Below, piece after piece: positions 50,255 to 61,723 of a stretch of DNA of 64,000 bases (positions within the stretch are counted from its first letter, which is position 1; each line of letters begins with the position of its first letter). The stretch lies in contig NZ_OZ250143.1 of NCBI RefSeq assembly GCF_965237495.1, positions 2,533,809-2,597,808 of the forward strand. The letters run 5' to 3'. Origin of the DNA: Candidatus Palauibacter sp. (GTDB lineage Bacteria; Gemmatimonadota; Gemmatimonadetes; Palauibacterales; Palauibacteraceae). The notes under the pieces are model-generated. The model did not search any database. It worked only from the letters and a program-made list of their open reading frames with translations, and was not told the DNA's origin. The position numbers and the translations under genes were made by a program.

Positions 50255-52582
50255 GTGCGGTTCGATGGTGTTGCCATGAACAACCCCCCGTCCCGTCCCG
50301 CCGTTTCCCCCAGGGCGCGCATCGCGGCGCTGGCTCGCAATGACAAGTGGTTCCTGGGGGGGCTGGACGGCGTGGTGTGGGCGCCGCCGTTCCCGCAGTG
50401 GCTTCACCGGCCGGGGTTCTGGGATCCCGTGCACCTGCTGCAGCACGAGGTCGGCCCGGGGTTCTCGGTGGCCCTCGTGCGCCCCGACGGGCTGGAAAAC
50501 CCCCTCCGTAGAGCGACCTGCGGCCCGAGCGGTCGCGAGCCGACGCCACGCAGGTGGCGGCCCGGGCGGCTGGTCGCCACGTGGTCGGATGAGCGAGGCG
50601 TCATCGTCGAGGAGCGCCGCCAGGTGCTGCCGGGCGGAATCCTGGAATCATCCTGGCACGTCCCCCGCGAGCTCGAGGGCCACCTCGTCGGCTTCACCGC
50701 GCAGCCGGCCGACGCGACCGACGGGGCGGAACCCACGGCAGCCGGCGTGGGCTGGACGCGGGCCGTCTCGGACCGGCGCGGGCAGGAATTGGTCCTGCGC
50801 CTGGAGCTCGCGGGCTCCGTTTCGCCCGCGTGGCGGCGCATCGTCCCGTCCGAGGGGCGCGGCGCGCCCGAATGGCGGCATTCGCCCTTCGCGGAAGACG
50901 GCGGCGGCCGCCCGGGGAGCGCCGGGACCGCTTGCGCGGGCGCCGACCCCGCGCCCGGCGCGGCCCCCGACCCCAACTCCGACCCGGACGCACGCCGCTC
51001 CGGGTGCATCTGGATCGCCGTCGCCCTTCCGCTGGCGGGGATCGACGACGGCGGCCCGCCGACCATCCGGCTGACCCTCCGCCTCCGGCGCGTCGAAGCT
51101 CGGCGCCCGGCTCCAACGTCCTCGACGCCCCCGGCCGGCGAGACCCCGGCAGCCTCCGCCTGGGAGTCCTTCTTCGGCGGGTTTCCCCACTTCCAGTGCG
51201 GCGATCCATATCTCGACCGCTACTTCGACTACCGCATCTACGGCCTTGGCCTGAACCGCATCGAGGGTCCATGGGGCCCGGTGCGGCACCCCGCCATCGC
51301 CGAGGGCCCGGAGTACTTCCACGTGCCGATCGCCTACAGCGCGCAGTGCCACATGATGGAGATGCGTTGGCGGAGGGGCGGGCGCGAGGCGTGGGGCTCA
51401 CTCCTGAACTTCGTCGACAACCAGAAGCCCGACGGCTCCTTCCACGGGCGCCTCTATCCCGAGCGCCTCGAGGGCACCGACTTCTACCACGCCAACTGGG
51501 GCGACGCGCTGCTCGCGGTCGACGACATGCACCCCGATGCGGCGTCGCTGGCCCGCTGCTACGAGGCACTGTCGCGCTACGCCCGCTGGCTGACGGCGGC
51601 GCGCGACCCCGAGGCGTCGGGGATGTTCACCGTCACGAACCATTTCGAGACGGGACAGGAGTACATGTCGCGCTACATGGCCGTGGACGAGGAGGCCGAC
51701 GTGGCGGGGTGGCGTCCCCGCCTCCGCCTCAAGGGGATCGACGTCACGGTGTACGCGCACCAGCTGTTCCGCGCCCTCGGCTCGGTGGCGCGCCGCCTGG
51801 AGCGGGCGGGCGACGAGGCCGAGTGGCGCGGGCTCGCGGCCCGCTGCTGGAGGGCGATCGACGAACGCATGTGGTCGGCGGAGGCCCGGCTGTTCACCGA
51901 CGTGGACGGGCGCACCGGCGAGCGCACCGGCGTGAAGGCGGCGGTGGGGTTCTACCCGCTGCTCACGGCACGGGTGGGCGGCGCCCGCCTCGACGCCCTG
52001 CTGGATCACCTCGAAGATCCGGGGAGCTTCGGCACGCGCTTCCCTCTGCCTTCGTCCAGCGTGGACGATCCGCGATTCTCGGCGGAGGGCATCTGGCGGG
52101 GGAAGCGCCGCAACTGCCCGTGGAACGGACGGGTATGGCCGATGACGACGAGCCACGTGATCGAAGGGTTGCTGCGCTGCTGGCGCGGCGGGAGCGCGCG
52201 GGCCGGCATGCTGGCGGCCGACATGCTCAACCGCTTCGCGCGCATGATGTTCACCGACGGCGACCCCTCGCGCCCCAACTGCTTCGAGCACTACAACCCG
52301 CACACGGGCCGCGCGTGCCACTTCCGGGGCATCGACGACTACCAGCACTCCTGGATCCTCGATTTGCTGACGCGCGGATTCGCCGGGCTCCATGTGGACG
52401 CGTCGGGAATCGAGGTGCGACCGCTGCCGAACGGTCCCGCCCGCGTGTCGCTGGGACCGGCAATCGCGCGGGGTCGCACCGTGCGCGTCGACCTGGAACC
52501 CGCGCGGGTGAGCGTCACCGTGGACGGCGAGCGGTTCGACGGCCCGCGCGGCGAGGCCTTGCGAGTTCCGTGGGTTCCGTGA
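50255..52582 (+). CDS. cytoplasmic six-hairpin glycoside hydrolase, GH63-like (mannosylglycerate/glucosylglycerate hydrolase- or processing alpha-glucosidase-like), copy 1
   Basis: 775 aa; N-terminal beta-rich domain plus a C-terminal (alpha/alpha)6-type region (FDYRIYGLGLN...HFETGQEYMSRY...DDYQHSWILDL). No signal peptide. The family is a pattern-based guess. Confidence 0.6.
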   Translation: MRFDGVAMNNPPSRPAVSPRARIAALARNDKWFLGGLDGVVWAPPFPQWLHRPGFWDPVHLLQHEVGPGFSVALVRPDGLENPLRRATCGPSGREPTPRRWRPGRLVATWSDERGVIVEERRQVLPGGILESSWHVPRELEGHLVGFTAQPADATDGAEPTAAGVGWTRAVSDRRGQELVLRLELAGSVSPAWRRIVPSEGRGAPEWRHSPFAEDGGGRPGSAGTACAGADPAPGAAPDPNSDPDARRSGCIWIAVALPLAGIDDGGPPTIRLTLRLRRVEARRPAPTSSTPPAGETPAASAWESFFGGFPHFQCGDPYLDRYFDYRIYGLGLNRIEGPWGPVRHPAIAEGPEYFHVPIAYSAQCHMMEMRWRRGGREAWGSLLNFVDNQKPDGSFHGRLYPERLEGTDFYHANWGDALLAVDDMHPDAASLARCYEALSRYARWLTAARDPEASGMFTVTNHFETGQEYMSRYMAVDEEADVAGWRPRLRLKGIDVTVYAHQLFRALGSVARRLERAGDEAEWRGLAARCWRAIDERMWSAEARLFTDVDGRTGERTGVKAAVGFYPLLTARVGGARLDALLDHLEDPGSFGTRFPLPSSSVDDPRFSAEGIWRGKRRNCPWNGRVWPMTTSHVIEGLLRCWRGGSARAGMLAADMLNRFARMMFTDGDPSRPNCFEHYNPHTGRACHFRGIDDYQHSWILDLLTRGFAGLHVDASGIEVRPLPNGPARVSLGPAIARGRTVRVDLEPARVSVTVDGERFDGPRGEALRVPWVP

Positions 52583-59561: not shown

Positions 59562-61723
59562 AGGGCACGGAGCCGGCCGAACGGCCGGAGCGGCCCACGC
59601 TCGTGATCCTCGCCGCCGGGCGGTCCACCCGGTTCGGTCGCGCCAAGCAGCTCGAGCCCGTGGGGCCGGGCGGCGCATCGCTGCTCGAATACGCGATTCA
59701 CGACGCCTTGCGCGCGGGCTTCGGGCGCTTCGTACTCGTGGTGAGGGAGAGCCATCGCGACGAGTTCGAGGCGCGCCTGGCTCCGCTGCGGGCGGCGGGG
59801 GTCGCGCTCTCCTTCGCCTGCCAGCGCCTCGCGCACGCCGACCTCGTGCCGCTCCCCCCGCCCGGGCGCGTCCGGCCCTGGGGCACGGGATTCGCGGTGC
59901 TGGCCGCGGCGGCCGCCCTGCCCCGCCGGGGTCCGTTCGCCGTCTGCAATGCGGACGACTTCTACGGGCGGGCCGCTTACGAGAGCCTGGCGCGCTTGCT
60001 CGCGGCCCCTCCCCCGGGCGTTCGCGCCTTCACCGTCTCCTACCCCTTGGCCGGCACCCTGTCCGCCTTCGGCGGCGTGTCGCGCGGCCTCTGCGAAATG
60101 AAGCCGGACGGCACGCTGCTCCGCATGACCGAGGGCCTGGACCTCCGCCTCGAGCGCGAGGCGACGCGGACGGGTTCCGGCGCCGAAGCCACCGCCGCCG
60201 GCGGGCGCAGTGCCGTTACTGGAACCACCACCGCCGGGACGTCGATCCGCGTCGACGCGGACAGCCAGGCGTGCATGGGGCTGTGGGGGTTCTTCCCCGA
60301 GATCCTGCCGCTGCTGGCGGAACGCTTCCGCGCCTTCCTCGCCGCCTGCCCCGGGGCCGACGACGAGTTCTACCTCTCCGAAGCCGTGAGCCACCTGGCC
60401 GCCGCCGGACGGGCGCGCTGCGGCCTTCTGCGCGCGGGCGAGGGTTGGATGGGCCTCACCTTCTCCGGCGACCGCGCGGGCGCCGCGGCCTCGCTCCGGC
60501 AGCTGACTGCGGCCGGGGCCTATCCCGCCGATCTCCGGACGCCGCCCGATCCCCCGGAGTCGGCCCCGCGCGCGCAGGCCCCGCCCATCCGCCCGCCTCA
60601 GGCGCCGCCCCGTGGGGTCGCGATCGCTCCCGGGCGCATCAACCTGATCGGGGAGCACCTCGACTATAACGGCCTCTCCGTGCTCCCGATGGCGCTCGAG
60701 CGGAACATCCGCCTGGAATTCGAGGTGCTGCGCCAACCGGCGGTCGAACTCACAGGCGATGCCGACCATGGCCCCTTCGCCTTTCGCCTGGACCGGCCGA
60801 TCGAACCCGCACCCCAAGGCCACTGGTCGAACTACGTGAGGGCCGCCGCCAGGGGGTTGCTGGACCACGGCGTGGAACTGAGACGAGGCATTGGGGGGAA
60901 CGTCGCCGGGACCGTGCCGGTGGCGGAGGGGCTCTCGTCGTCGTCCGCCCTCGTTGTAGCGTCGGCGCTGGCCCTGTTGCACGCGAACGAGAAGCATGTG
61001 GAGGTGCTGGAGCTGGCGGCGCTGCTGGCCCGCGCCGAGCGTTTCGTCGGGTTGCAGGGTGGCGGGATGGACCAGGCGGCGTCTCTCTGCGGAGCGAAGG
61101 GGCACGCGCTCAGGATCGACTTCGGGCCGCTGCGCGTGACGCCGGTGCCGGTGCCCGAGGGATGGCGGTGGGTCGTCGCGTCGTCGCTGGCGCGCGCGAA
61201 GAAGGCCGGGTCGGCGCGCGAGCCGTACAACGAGCGGCGGGCCCAGTGCGCGGAGGCGCTCGAGCGGCTGGGCCGGGCATCCTGGCTGGAAGTGGTGGTG
61301 GCCGACGAGGCCGAGTTCGCATCCCTCCTGGCCGGGGCGCGCCGGTCGCTGCCGCCCACGCTGTGGCGGCGCTTTCGCCATGTGGCGACGGAGGGCCGCC
61401 GCGTGATCGAGGCCGAGGCCGCGCTGCACCGGGAGGACATGGCCGCCTTCGGCACGCTGATGAACGCGTCCCACGCCAGCCTGCGCGACGATTTCGGCGT
61501 GAGCACGGCGGCGCTGGACGAGATCGTAGAGGTGGCCCTCGACGCGGGCGCGGCGGGGGCGCGGCTCACGGGGGCGGGATTCGGCGGCTGCGCAATCGCG
61601 CTCTGCCGGGCGAGCCGGGCGGAAGGCGTGATGGCCGCGCTGCGCGAGCGCTTCTACGCTCCCCGGGGCGGGGTCGGCGGCGGCGCGCTGTTCGTGGCCG
61701 CAGCGTCTGATGGAGCACGGTGA
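59557..61723 (+). CDS. bifunctional sugar-1-phosphate nucleotidyltransferase / galactokinase-family GHMP sugar kinase (FKP-like fusion)
   Basis: N-terminal LVILAAGRSTRFGRAKQLEPVG (NTP-transferase G-loop). C-terminal galactokinase signature GRINLIGEHLDYNGLSVLP, GHMP motif GLSSSSALVVA, and a C-terminal GAGFGGCAIAL. Its ATG overlaps the upstream stop (ATGA). The frame and start come from the internal Met of track ORF 59279..61723. Confidence 0.75.

Follow-up and report, generated by a model that had tools for sequence, protein, structure and literature searches.

A Gemmatimonadota operon combining an ABC importer, two GH63-like glycosidases, and a galactokinase-nucleotidyltransferase fusion protein

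Results

Gene organization of the operon

The window analyzed in the present study, namely, the whole stretch of 64,000 nucleotides from Candidatus Palauibacter sp., has a G+C content of 70-76%, and its raw lists of open reading frames are noisy. A third-position GC (GC3) frame plot clearly resolved a single coding frame in each segment of the plus strand from approximately 50.2 to 61.7 kb, in which seven genes (g1 to g7) are packed as one operon, starting at 50255 or 50276 and ending at 61723.

50022-50254, no strand: intergenic, presumed operon promoter region (GC3 frame plot and translation)
50255-52582, plus strand: g1, distant GH63-like (clan GH-G-like) glycosidase, predicted to be cytoplasmic (PF22422, MGH1-like GH)
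52579-53670, plus strand: g2, ABC ATPase of the MalK/UgpC type, 363 aa, with a TOBE domain at its C terminus (ABC_tran 1.7e-35, TOBE_2 2.7e-12)
53667-54998, plus strand: g3, CUT1-type sugar-binding lipoprotein, 443 aa (SBP_bac_8, SBP_bac_1)
54995-56758, plus strand: g4, MalF/UgpA-like permease, 587 aa (BPD_transp_1 at residues 401-571; UgpA at residues 300-583)
56751-57569, plus strand: g5, MalG/UgpE-like permease, 272 aa (BPD_transp_1 4.8e-20; UgpE 146 bits)
57603-59561, plus strand: g6, GH63-like glycosidase, predicted to be cytoplasmic, 652 aa (PF22422, Glyco_hydro_63, and Trehalase)
58365-58367, plus strand: predicted fixer Asp255 (GWDSFF) of g6 (alignment)
58773-58775, plus strand: predicted acid Asp391 (WESGQDD) of g6 (aligned with YgjK D501)
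59334-59336, plus strand: predicted base Glu578 (CRENF) of g6 (aligned with YgjK E727)
59558-60535, plus strand: g7, residues 1-326, 3pnn-like putative sugar-1-phosphate nucleotidyltransferase domain (NTP_transf_3, NTP_transferase)
60536-60622, plus strand: g7, residues 327-355, Pro-rich linker, unalignable and variable among relatives (sequence)
60623-61723, plus strand: g7, residues 356-721, galactokinase domain (GalKase_gal_bdg, GHMP_kinases_N/C)

Junctions were read by inspecting start codons. The stop codon of g1 and the GTG of g2 overlap as GTGA (52579-52582), g2 and g3 as ATGA (53667-53670), g3 and g4 as GTGA (54995-54998), and g6 and g7 as ATGA (59558-59561), in agreement with the four of six junctions that the first-pass annotation had reported; a fifth junction, g4/g5, additionally overlaps by 8 nt (ATGGCTGA, 56751-56758), and g5 and g6 are separated by 33 nt. 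The first four overlaps are identical in the independently called genes of two relatives (L002 and L086). The proposed gene order and domains were borne out for g1 to g7 by Pfam/NCBIfam-type matches, and the reading as a single compact operon holds given the common strand, the overlaps, and the conservation of order in relatives. The g1 protein has 775 aa when read from GTG 50255 and 768 aa from ATG 50276; the latter is the more likely start because a 100%-identical NCBI protein has 768 aa and the family consensus begins there. Proteins 100% identical to g1 and to g6 are both present in databases (Candidatus Palauibacter, Gemmatimonadota). A lipoprotein gene on the minus strand (49302-50021) is divergent from g1, and neither a sigma-70-like site nor an Rfam family match was found in the intergenic region at 50022-50254.

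The ABC importer

The products of g2 to g5 have in common with the CUT1 importers MalEFGK2 and UgpBAEC a MalK-type ATPase with TOBE, two BPD_transp_1 permeases, and a family-1 binding protein; however, every score is under its equivalog cutoff, including those of g2 for UgpC (416 bits) and MalK (357 bits). The system also differs in that the ATPase gene comes first, directly 3' of a glycosidase gene, and in that the MalF-like permease g4 bears a conserved N-terminal extension of approximately 300 aa, with about four extra hydrophobic segments in a hydropathy scan; relatives of g4 are equally long (582-607 aa). The g3 protein has a signal sequence and lipobox (...LAAVAC|G), and its best solved relative is the arabino-oligosaccharide-binding protein 6rjy (E 6.5e-20), such that it appears to resemble oligosaccharide-binding CUT1 proteins, in a generic manner only.

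The two glycosidases

Pfam and profile searches upheld the clan GH-G (GH63-like) relationship that had been proposed for both glycosidases, although it is remote, and assigned neither of them to an unrelated family that has its own known pathway. With GH63 enzymes (YgjK, TTHA0978, glucosylglycerate hydrolase, and processing glucosidase I), g1 and g6 share an N-terminal beta-sandwich and an (alpha/alpha)6 barrel, whereas the similarity in sequence lies mainly in the C-terminal third (E 1e-17 for g6 and 4e-8 for g1). The g6 protein (PF22422 2.4e-48, PF03200 5e-16, and Trehalase 2.4e-13) matches TTHA0978 at 1.5e-17 and YgjK at 3e-17 in profile comparisons and carries the full clan GH-G alpha-glucosidase-type triad, that is, equivalents of the acid and base of YgjK plus the fixer Asp; the roles of these residues in GH63 have been described (bioRxiv 10.64898/2026.07.01.735942). 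The active site of g1 is atypical: Glu462 (FETGQE) occupies the place of the general acid and Glu671 (CFEHYNP) that of the general base, and a conserved fixer Asp was not found in the protein. Since g1 is homologous to g6 and carboxylates occupy both of its catalytic positions, both enzymes look active as far as their sequences tell.

The best neighbor of the glycosidases in sequence and structure was TTHA0978, which we take to be the GH63 mannosylglycerate hydrolase of Thermus; in structural comparisons, with a g1 model of moderate quality and a g6 model too poor for use, the GH176 enzyme 7VMA was almost as near to g1. In keeping with the earlier claim that the glycosidases lack signal peptides, no hydrophobic N-terminal segment was found in g1 or g6, or in g7, by a Kyte-Doolittle scan only.

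The fusion protein

The g7 protein (721 aa) consists of an N-terminal nucleotidyltransferase, a Pro-rich linker, and a C-terminal galactokinase, and the domain matches thereby agree with the initial assignment of a nucleotidyltransferase joined to an anomeric kinase of the galactokinase family. Residues 12-326 match PDB 3pnn (E 3.4e-53), and the domain, which contains the motifs LAAGRSTRFGRAKQL and NADD, is assigned to an uncharacterized 3pnn-like family of approximately 300 aa; MurU was absent among the PDB matches of g7. The kinase scored 242.6 bits against the TIGR00131 galactokinase model (cutoff 226.65), and among solved proteins matched human GALK2, an N-acetylgalactosamine kinase, at 1.9e-53 and GALK1 at 1.3e-49, a small margin. 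Arg360, Glu366, His367, Asp369, Tyr370, Asp505, Tyr557, and a GLSSSS P-loop are conserved, and a residue-by-residue alignment with E. coli GalK showed that every galactose-contacting residue of bacterial GalK is retained. The domain is thus predicted to be a canonical galactokinase.

Relatives of the operon and origin of the fusion

A check of synteny in related genomes revealed the same gene order in about 15 loci of Palauibacter or its relatives; in relatives, a DUF5107-TPR lipoprotein gene comes after the fusion gene. In about 60 loci of Longimicrobiales and Gemmatimonadales, the nucleotidyltransferase and galactokinase are separate proteins encoded in a cluster with an SSF-type Na+/solute symporter gene between them, which in 15 of these loci is divergently adjoined by a gene for a GalE-like SDR epimerase. 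The standalone nucleotidyltransferases are 51-54% identical to that of g7 with invariant motifs, and g7 is judged to be the joined form of this split pair, with both halves orthologous. In the trees of both domains, the Palauibacter fusions are monophyletic and a solitary fusion (L001), which has no ABC or glycosidase genes alongside, branches among unfused sequences; on this evidence, the fusion arose at least twice.

The g1 gene and the ABC genes stand alone in two loci (L089 and L091), and occur with g6 but without the kinase in a genome that retains the unfused cluster (L086; L056). We regard the operon as modular, with g1 and the importer as a core to which g6 and the fusion would have been added later, in Palauibacter. 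The complete Palauibacter chromosomes hold the fused copy only, among the matches listed, and the symporter of the unfused pair appears to have been lost, consistent with a takeover of the sugar supply by the ABC system. In other phyla, the nucleotidyltransferase accompanies NahK-like kinases, as an SSF-nucleotidyltransferase-kinase arrangement in a Bacteroidales MAG and as overlapping MFS, nucleotidyltransferase, kinase, and epimerase genes on a Verrucomicrobia-like contig. The symporter of Gemmatimonadota and that of Bacteroidales, the latter paired with a NahK-like GlcNAc/GalNAc kinase, share 56% identity.

Discussion

We consider it somewhat probable that the operon serves the use of an alpha-linked glycoside or short oligosaccharide that contains galactose, including a route to NDP-galactose. 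The g3 lipoprotein and the MalFGK-type importer (g2, g4, and g5) would bring the compound into the cytoplasm, where g6, with its standard alpha-gluco/manno-type triad, and g1, with its atypical active site, may split it as two distantly GH63-like inverting glycosidases. The galactokinase domain of g7 would then phosphorylate the freed D-galactose at C1, and the fused nucleotidyltransferase would convert galactose 1-phosphate at once into NDP-galactose, probably UDP-galactose, thereby filling the place of GalT in the classical Leloir pathway; a 4-epimerase encoded elsewhere may link UDP-galactose with the UDP-glucose pool for catabolism and/or glycan synthesis. This pyrophosphorylase-type route is the most likely one because the nucleotidyltransferase pairs with GalK or NahK-like kinases and the fusion arose repeatedly. 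Import, cytoplasmic hydrolysis, C1 phosphorylation, and activation to an NDP-sugar, as put forward in the first-pass annotation, remain the best reading; we infer them from the gene set and the domains, as we do the action on galactose 1-phosphate, the nucleotide used, the identity of the imported compound, and the further use of the product. To our knowledge, the sugar freed from the -1 subsite by characterized GH63 enzymes is always glucose or mannose and never galactose, and galactose must therefore either stem from the aglycone side or be released by the atypical g1.

The fusion had been likened to FKP, described as the bifunctional L-fucokinase/GDP-L-fucose pyrophosphorylase of Bacteroides fragilis and plants. 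The likeness holds for the architecture, an N-terminal pyrophosphorylase followed by an anomeric kinase of the GHMP family, which are described as activating a free sugar to its nucleotide form in two successive steps, but not for relatedness: no Fucokinase-family domain was found in g7 by a domain search, the kinase scores as a galactokinase, and the nucleotidyltransferase is 3pnn-like. FKP is approximately 950 aa in length, against the 721 aa of g7, which is, moreover, set within an import and hydrolysis operon; g7 is not an FKP orthologue. The Bifidobacterium GNB/LNB pathway, with NahK, the GalT-type LnpC, and the GalE-type LnpD, and the peptidoglycan-sugar salvage system AmgK-MurU resemble the contexts of this family in combining an anomeric kinase, nucleotide activation, and epimerization of an imported sugar; in phyla other than Gemmatimonadota, the 3pnn-like nucleotidyltransferase adjoins NahK-like kinases and an epimerase. 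Both use APH-fold kinases, with a GalT-type transferase or a short MurU. The zebrafish glucuronokinase/putative UDP-GlcA pyrophosphorylase DrGKUP similarly places a bacterial-type nucleotidyltransferase of approximately 260-300 aa N-terminal to a GHMP sugar-1-kinase, but is eukaryotic and specific for glucuronate, and the study describing it did not demonstrate pyrophosphorylase activity (PMC3938481).

In the Leloir pathway and in the USP route, the latter described for plants and Leishmania as GalK plus a UDP-sugar pyrophosphorylase that uses UTP in place of GalT exchange with UDP-glucose, GalK gives galactose 1-phosphate and UDP-galactose follows, as in the proposed route. The nucleotidyltransferase here differs in being small and 3pnn-like rather than of the USP/UGPase type, and in being fused to GalK; in contrast to the Leloir pathway, no GalT-like sequence was seen near any fetched locus (1.53 Mb), which is weak evidence. 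The unfused Gemmatimonadota cluster resembles a Leloir gal cluster in also having a transporter and a GalE-like epimerase, and looks like the ordinary galactose-utilization route of this lineage, with a pyrophosphorylase replacing GalT. The term salvage, which had been used previously, finds no support in these orthologues.

A purely anabolic salvage, as in Bacteroides FKP, would instead direct NDP-galactose to surface glycans or exopolysaccharide rather than central metabolism. Natural pyrophosphorylase-kinase fusions (FKP for fucose and zebrafish GKUP for glucuronate) feed glycoconjugates, a fusion channels the sugar directly to the nucleotide sugar, and the operon has no gene for an epimerase or UDP-glucose pyrophosphorylase. 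However, the unfused orthologues, with their dedicated symporter and the epimerase in 15 loci, have a catabolic gal layout, and an ATP-driven importer with two hydrolases is a heavy outlay for precursor salvage alone; we regard exclusively anabolic use as rather unlikely, while both fates are chemically compatible and differ only in where the product goes. The pair may also handle an analogue of galactose, for example GalNAc, L-arabinose, or D-fucose, contained in the imported glycoside. The sugar could be of this type because of the 56% identity of the symporter to one partnered with a NahK-like kinase and the edge of GALK2 over GALK1; the NahK-like partners in other phyla and the arabino-oligosaccharide-binding match of g3 are consistent with this. 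Since the GALK2 margin is small, TIGR00131 is above its trusted cutoff, and all galactose contacts are kept, we nevertheless find an analogue improbable.

The original proposal was a compatible solute of the mannosylglycerate or glucosylglycerate type, or a related alpha-glycoside osmolyte, whose hexose would be salvaged to an NDP-sugar. It is favored by the name of the Pfam model that matches both glycosidases, which derives from mannosylglycerate hydrolase, by weak NCBIfam matches to glucosylglycerate hydrolase, by TTHA0978 as the nearest neighbor, and by the organisms, which come from marine, sponge, or saline-soil habitats. However, the hexose that known GH63 solute hydrolases set free along with glycerate is mannose or glucose, and this mismatches a galactose-type kinase with every galactose-binding residue kept; the glucosylglycerate hydrolase scores are 35-37 bits against a cutoff of 550, neither this operon nor the relatives' operons examined encode a glycerate or glycerol kinase, and g3 resembles oligosaccharide binders. 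This substrate is therefore improbable, and a galactose-containing alpha-glycoside is the most likely one. A galactosyl-polyol such as floridoside would suit the kinase, and no result of the analysis points there. That the fusion gene is a mere passenger, brought beside functionally unrelated ABC and glycosidase genes by rearrangement, would accommodate the occurrence of g1 and the ABC genes, with or without g6, in other genomes without it, as well as the independent L001 fusion. Against this, adjacency, strand, and tight spacing (ATGA here) are kept in about 15 genomes at 73-96% identity, and the apparent loss of the symporter in Palauibacter fits the ABC takeover of the sugar supply, which makes a chance association very improbable.

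Our literature searches found no description of a natural galactokinase-nucleotidyltransferase fusion and no biochemical data on the 3pnn-like family or any component of the operon; the fusion most likely leads to a nucleotide sugar. If the galactose reading is correct, a single polypeptide would carry galactose to NDP-galactose, with a pyrophosphorylase standing in for GalT.

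Gene Organization of the Operon

The window comes from a Candidatus Palauibacter (Gemmatimonadota). The G+C content across its operon region is 0.70-0.76, and because the window is very G+C-rich, its list of open reading frames is full of spurious frames. An analysis of G+C content by codon position revealed one frame per segment with a GC3 of 0.85-0.97 on the plus strand between approximately 50.2 and 61.7 kb, and seven genes were therefore defined. The gene order and domains predicted in the first-pass annotation were returned by Pfam and NCBIfam scans of the seven products, and start-codon inspection bore out the GTGA or ATGA overlaps it had claimed at four of the six junctions, with a fifth overlap of 8 nt.

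Genes of the operon (plus strand, ending at 61723), with domains from Pfam/NCBIfam scans and junctions from start-codon inspection
g1: MGH1-like glycoside hydrolase; junction with g2, GTGA overlap
g2: MalK/UgpC-type ATPase with a TOBE domain; junction with g3, ATGA overlap
g3: family-1 solute-binding protein; junction with g4, GTGA overlap
g4 and g5: two BPD_transp_1 permeases; g4/g5 junction, 8-nt overlap, ATGGCTGA; g5/g6 junction, 33-nt gap
g6: second MGH1-like/GH63/trehalase-like hydrolase; junction with g7, ATGA overlap
g7: N-terminal nucleotidyltransferase and C-terminal galactokinase

The first four junction overlaps recur in independent gene calls on related contigs. Gene g1 probably starts with the ATG at 50276, given that its 100%-identical counterpart in the databases has 768 aa; an identical database protein exists for g6 as well. 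The TOBE-bearing MalK-type ATPase, the two BPD_transp_1 permeases, and the exported family-1 binding protein, the signal sequence of which ends in the lipobox LAAVAC, place the importer in the CUT1 (MalEFGK-like) type. A simple hydropathy scan detected no N-terminal hydrophobic segment in either glycosidase, in keeping with the earlier view that both lack a signal peptide, and none in g7. The permease g4 has an N-terminal extension (residues 1-300; 54995-55900) that adds about four hydrophobic segments and matches no Pfam family; the length of this extension is kept in all relatives (proteins of 582-607 aa).

Regarding the surroundings of the operon, an Rfam search identified no riboswitch or other element nearby, no tRNA was present there, a search for promoters and terminators yielded nothing convincing, and no transcriptional regulator was found beside the operon, either in the window or among its relatives. 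The upstream neighbors are as follows:
49302-50021, minus strand: divergent small acidic-rich lipoprotein without a meaningful Pfam match
42202-45453 and 46533-49292: two large exported proteins with no evident link to the operon
When the translations of the latter two were read by eye, one resembled a BNR/sortilin-type repeat protein, and the other a leucine-rich-repeat protein with a C-terminal zinc-metalloprotease motif (HELGHNLSLEH).

The Fusion Protein g7

The C-terminal half of g7 (residues 350-720) is a galactokinase, scoring 242.6 bits against TIGR00131 (equivalog cutoff, 226.65) and matching the galactose-binding signature PF10509 at an E value of 1.2e-14. In a PDB search, its matches to human GALK2 and GALK1 had E values of about 1e-50, with the human GalNAc kinase as the marginally best solved match. 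Residues R360, E366, H367, D369, D505, and Y557 and the GLSSSS loop align with R28, E34, H35, D37, D174, and Y223 and the P-loop GLSSSA of E. coli GalK. The kinase half keeps every galactose-binding and catalytic residue of bacterial GalK in this alignment and is predicted to be a galactose-type kinase.

The N-terminal half (residues 12-326) matches PDB 3pnn, a structural-genomics protein without an assigned function, over its full length (E 3.4e-53), and is joined to the kinase half by a proline-rich linker. It shows the superfamily signature, a nucleotide-binding motif of the form G-x-G-T/S-R-x(n)-K together with an acidic motif for metal binding; LAAGRSTRFGRAKQL and NADD do not vary among the members, whether fused or unfused.

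The first-pass annotation had described g7 as an FKP-like fusion. The likeness proved to be architectural only, in that a nucleotidyltransferase (12-326) precedes a GHMP anomeric kinase (350-720); g7 is not an FKP orthologue, its kinase being a galactokinase and its nucleotidyltransferase 3pnn-like. The Pfam scan returned only NTP_transf_3, NTP_transferase, GalKase_gal_bdg, and GHMP_kinases_N/C, the fucokinase family domain (PF07959) was absent from it, and no FKP chain appeared among the PDB matches of g7. An identification of 3pnn as the Porphyromonas MurU partner of AmgK was also dropped; MurU was absent from the PDB matches of g7, and P. gingivalis lacks AmgK according to one paper, which also counted against the idea.

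In the literature, we found no natural GalK-nucleotidyltransferase fusion and no described characterization or activity of the 3pnn-like family. Fusions of this type are now hand-engineered for nucleotide-sugar synthesis (PMC11267548); a 2024 paper on an artificial chimera names the salvage enzymes for fucose and glucuronate as natural precedents with an N-terminal pyrophosphorylase and a C-terminal kinase.

The 3pnn-Like Nucleotidyltransferase Family

A search covering 1.84 billion representative proteins gathered 914 clusters (50% identity) at E <= 1e-30, nearly all of which are stand-alone proteins of approximately 300 aa with generic names in their sources, such as "NTP transferase domain-containing" or "NDP-sugar synthase". 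GalK fusions make up two of the best 150 of these 914 clusters. Longer proteins of the family were considered as further fusions and rejected, as they look unrelated or like mis-called genes. The members looked up belong to Gemmatimonadota, Chthoniobacterales, Bacteroidales, and Clostridium.

The partner of the nucleotidyltransferase is GalK in approximately 75 Gemmatimonadota loci (among the matches listed) and a NahK-like kinase in two other phyla. A Bacteroidales metagenome-assembled genome (MAG) has the order symporter, nucleotidyltransferase, and a kinase that matches the Bifidobacterium N-acetylhexosamine 1-kinase at 6e-61, while a Verrucomicrobia-like contig carries overlapping genes for an MFS transporter, the nucleotidyltransferase, a NahK-like kinase (1e-80), and an NDP-sugar epimerase. 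Across these contexts inside and outside the phylum, the family is therefore found again and again with anomeric sugar kinases that belong to two unrelated folds, with a transporter, and with a 4-epimerase-type enzyme. The simplest reading, based on genomic association, is that the nucleotidyltransferase converts the hexose-1-phosphate made by the kinase to an NDP-hexose. This proposed role is held by GalT in the Leloir pathway, and the corresponding role in the bifidobacterial GNB/LNB pathway is held by LnpC.

Modules of a transporter, the nucleotidyltransferase, and an anomeric kinase were located in three phyla, in loci fetched from other genomes (own coordinates):
L090, 3529-7378
L092, 3855-8920
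L003, 7062-11284
The partner kinase has either the GHMP fold (GalK) or the APH fold (NahK-like), and the Bacteroidales and Gemmatimonadota symporters are 56% identical.

Distribution and Origin of the Fusion

One genome per species was scanned, followed by tblastn with all operon proteins. Full-length relatives of g7 (76-95% identity) were confined to Palauibacter-like Gemmatimonadota, except for two more distant proteins of approximately 800 aa. The synteny check in related genomes that had been suggested earlier came out in favor of the operon, the fused gene lying directly behind g6-like and ABC genes in approximately 15 loci (among the matches listed). Stand-alone galactokinases approximately 60% identical to the C-terminal half of g7 sit in a conserved three-gene cluster of a nucleotidyltransferase (354-387 aa), an Na+/solute symporter, and GalK, which was present in approximately 60 Longimicrobiales/Gemmatimonadales loci (among the matches listed); the nucleotidyltransferases of this cluster share 51-54% identity with the N-terminal half of g7 and keep every motif unchanged. 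A GalE-like SDR epimerase gene divergently adjoins the unfused cluster in 15 loci. No GalT-like sequence was detected in the window or in the 93 fetched related loci (1.53 Mb).

The Palauibacter fusions group in a single clade in the neighbor-joining trees built for the two domains, and the solitary fusion of another locus (L001) falls among the unfused sequences in both; therefore, at least two fusion events occurred. Complete Palauibacter chromosomes have the fused copy only, among the matches listed. Both the fused gene and an unfused cluster are present in the Palauibacter MAG RHO1_bin_50 (L010 and L053), on contigs with coverages of 431x and 585x; this may reflect a true second copy or a binning error, the latter being possible because the contig coverages differ.

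The Two Glycosidases

The products of g1 and g6 are mutually homologous (hhalign probability, 98.4%), and their kinship with solved enzymes, as judged from sequence profiles, is remote. The g6 profile matched Thermus TTHA0978 and E. coli YgjK (GH63) at approximately 1e-17, trehalase at 3e-9, and 7VMA, the GH176 founder, at 6e-6; the g1 profile matched YgjK at 4e-8. GH176 competes with GH63 as a placement, and we label both proteins as putatively "GH63-like, clan GH-G-type".

The two enzymes differ in their Pfam matches and catalytic residues. PF03200 matched g6 with 59 bits against a cutoff of 22.4, within residues 482-598 only, and in the alignment with YgjK, D391 (WESGQDD) falls on the acid D501 and E578 (CRENF) on the base E727, while D255 in the motif GWDSFF is the fixer Asp, so that g6 has the catalytic residues of GH63. 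The roles of the acid, base, and fixer residues were taken from a previous study, in which the clan GH-G fixer Asp holds O4/O6 of the glucoside at subsite -1 (bioRxiv 10.64898/2026.07.01.735942). The Pfam scan of g1 returned PF22422 and no PF03200, and the triad was incomplete: Glu462 occupies the acid position and Glu671 the base position, and the residue aligned with the fixer varies within the g1 family ("TWxSFF"), in a stretch where the alignment is of low confidence. The AF2 model of g6, built on an alignment of 36 sequences, was too poor to use (mean pLDDT, 48.5).

Modularity of the Operon and the Downstream DUF5107-TPR Gene

In Longimicrobiales, a g1-like gene and the four ABC genes occur alone, and one genome of this order has a six-gene version with g6 and without the kinase, keeping an unfused nucleotidyltransferase-symporter-GalK cluster elsewhere (L056). 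Other g6-like genes adjoin GH116-like genes without a transporter. As g1 and the ABC genes are seen alone and g6 and the kinase are variable, the core unit is g1 with the ABC transporter; g6 and the fusion are additions to this core, and all are joined in Palauibacter. An ABC system in place of the symporter as the source of sugar for the kinase fits this arrangement. The gene neighborhoods were also searched for clues to the substrate: what lies beside the g1-like and g6-like genes differs between loci (TonB receptor, GH116-like, and DUF5128), and no conserved regulator or further catabolic gene was found near them. Two loci from some Longimicrobiales have a g6-like gene (66-67% identical) beside a gene for a GH116-like protein and no ABC transporter:
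L087, 6034-12187: CMAS/sterol-methyltransferase-like gene adjacent; upstream of the GH116-like gene, at a distance of approximately 3 kb, a Rieske/KshA-like gene with a P450 gene alongside
L088, 5335-12055: Rieske/KshA-like gene adjacent

Downstream of the fusion and on its strand, every other Palauibacter locus carries a gene for a DUF5107-TPR lipoprotein of approximately 1000 aa (lipobox VVSC). This gene starts 40-1500 nt behind the fusion in most loci and lies approximately 4 kb behind it in the three closest relatives of the window; in L001, 2 kb separate it from the independently fused gene. Its positions in four loci are as follows:
L002, 12700-15813
L009, 10226-13210
L006, 14156-17023
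L001, 4199-8083

In the window, homology to relatives ends at 61731, 8 nt past the g7 stop codon, and the G+C content of 61732-64000 is 0.596 vs. approximately 0.72. This segment, which has the appearance of an insertion peculiar to the strain, placed between g7 and the DUF5107 gene, contains the following open reading frame:
62538-63980, minus strand: 480 aa, HExxH motif (AHEYGHAMHE), no Pfam match
Because this lower-GC, strain-specific segment follows 61731, the DUF5107 gene is probably located just past the window end. The only solved relative of the DUF5107-TPR protein is 5cd6, and no functional data on DUF5107 were found in the literature. A role as a cytoplasmic mutarotase was rejected, as the protein bears a lipoprotein signal. 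The exported protein could be an enzyme or a binder that yields the imported oligosaccharide, and may thereby belong to the system as its eighth component.

Proposed Function and Significance

The logic of import, hydrolysis, and activation put forward in the first-pass annotation is kept as the best explanation, and its domain assignments are correct. A galactose-containing alpha-glycoside or short oligosaccharide would be bound by g3, imported by g2, g4, and g5, and split in the cytoplasm, where g6 would act as an inverting alpha-gluco/manno-type exo-glycosidase and g1 on a different linkage or sugar. The galactose would then be phosphorylated and nucleotide-activated by g7, and a 4-epimerase encoded elsewhere would link the product to UDP-glucose. 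The nucleotide sugar may be consumed as fuel or go into glycans.

The compatible solute that had been envisaged as the substrate finds no support, given the galactose-type kinase, the negligible scores for glucosylglycerate hydrolase (GgH), the absence of a glycerate or glycerol kinase from the operon, and the resemblance of g3 to oligosaccharide binders. A similarity search with g3 for its substrate gave a generic CUT1 likeness only. Glc-alpha-1,2-Gal, the collagen glycan, is one attractive candidate substrate. YgjK has been crystallized with this compound (3W7W). The FKP and compatible-solute framing should be replaced by one of galactoside utilization, with a fused GalK/3pnn-like nucleotidyltransferase standing in for GalT.

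A wider joint reading combines a nucleotidyltransferase class replacing GalT/LnpC, a new clan GH-G specificity in g1, and the production of the oligosaccharide by the DUF5107-TPR protein; we consider it rather doubtful that all of this holds together. In its parts, the 3pnn-like proteins may be widespread unrecognized hexose-1-phosphate nucleotidyltransferases in several phyla, which would replace GalT/LnpC-type enzymes in modules of a transporter, an anomeric kinase, the nucleotidyltransferase, and in some cases an epimerase. Palauibacter g7 would be the first natural enzyme to take galactose to NDP-galactose in one chain, g1 would stand at the head of a new specificity within clan GH-G, such as that of a galactose-releasing inverting enzyme, and the DUF5107-TPR lipoprotein would be an extracytoplasmic enzyme or binder that makes the oligosaccharide from a glycan of marine or sponge origin.

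No principle is overturned, as other organisms are already known to have kinase-pyrophosphorylase fusions or to use galactose by routes independent of GalT; the system is real and represents a new version of known kinds of system, with uncharacterized enzymes. If the proposed mechanism holds, a function would be assigned to a large orphan family, the crystal structure of which (3pnn) is more than a decade old, a whole bacterial phylum would be able to make UDP-galactose from galactose via a pyrophosphorylase step, as a possible alternative to GalT, and a natural single-polypeptide catalyst from galactose to NDP-galactose would be available. The two glycosidases and the DUF5107 lipoprotein are uncharacterized enzymes of uncultured marine and sponge-associated Gemmatimonadota, and the substrate of the operon would tell us the diet of these abundant bacteria.
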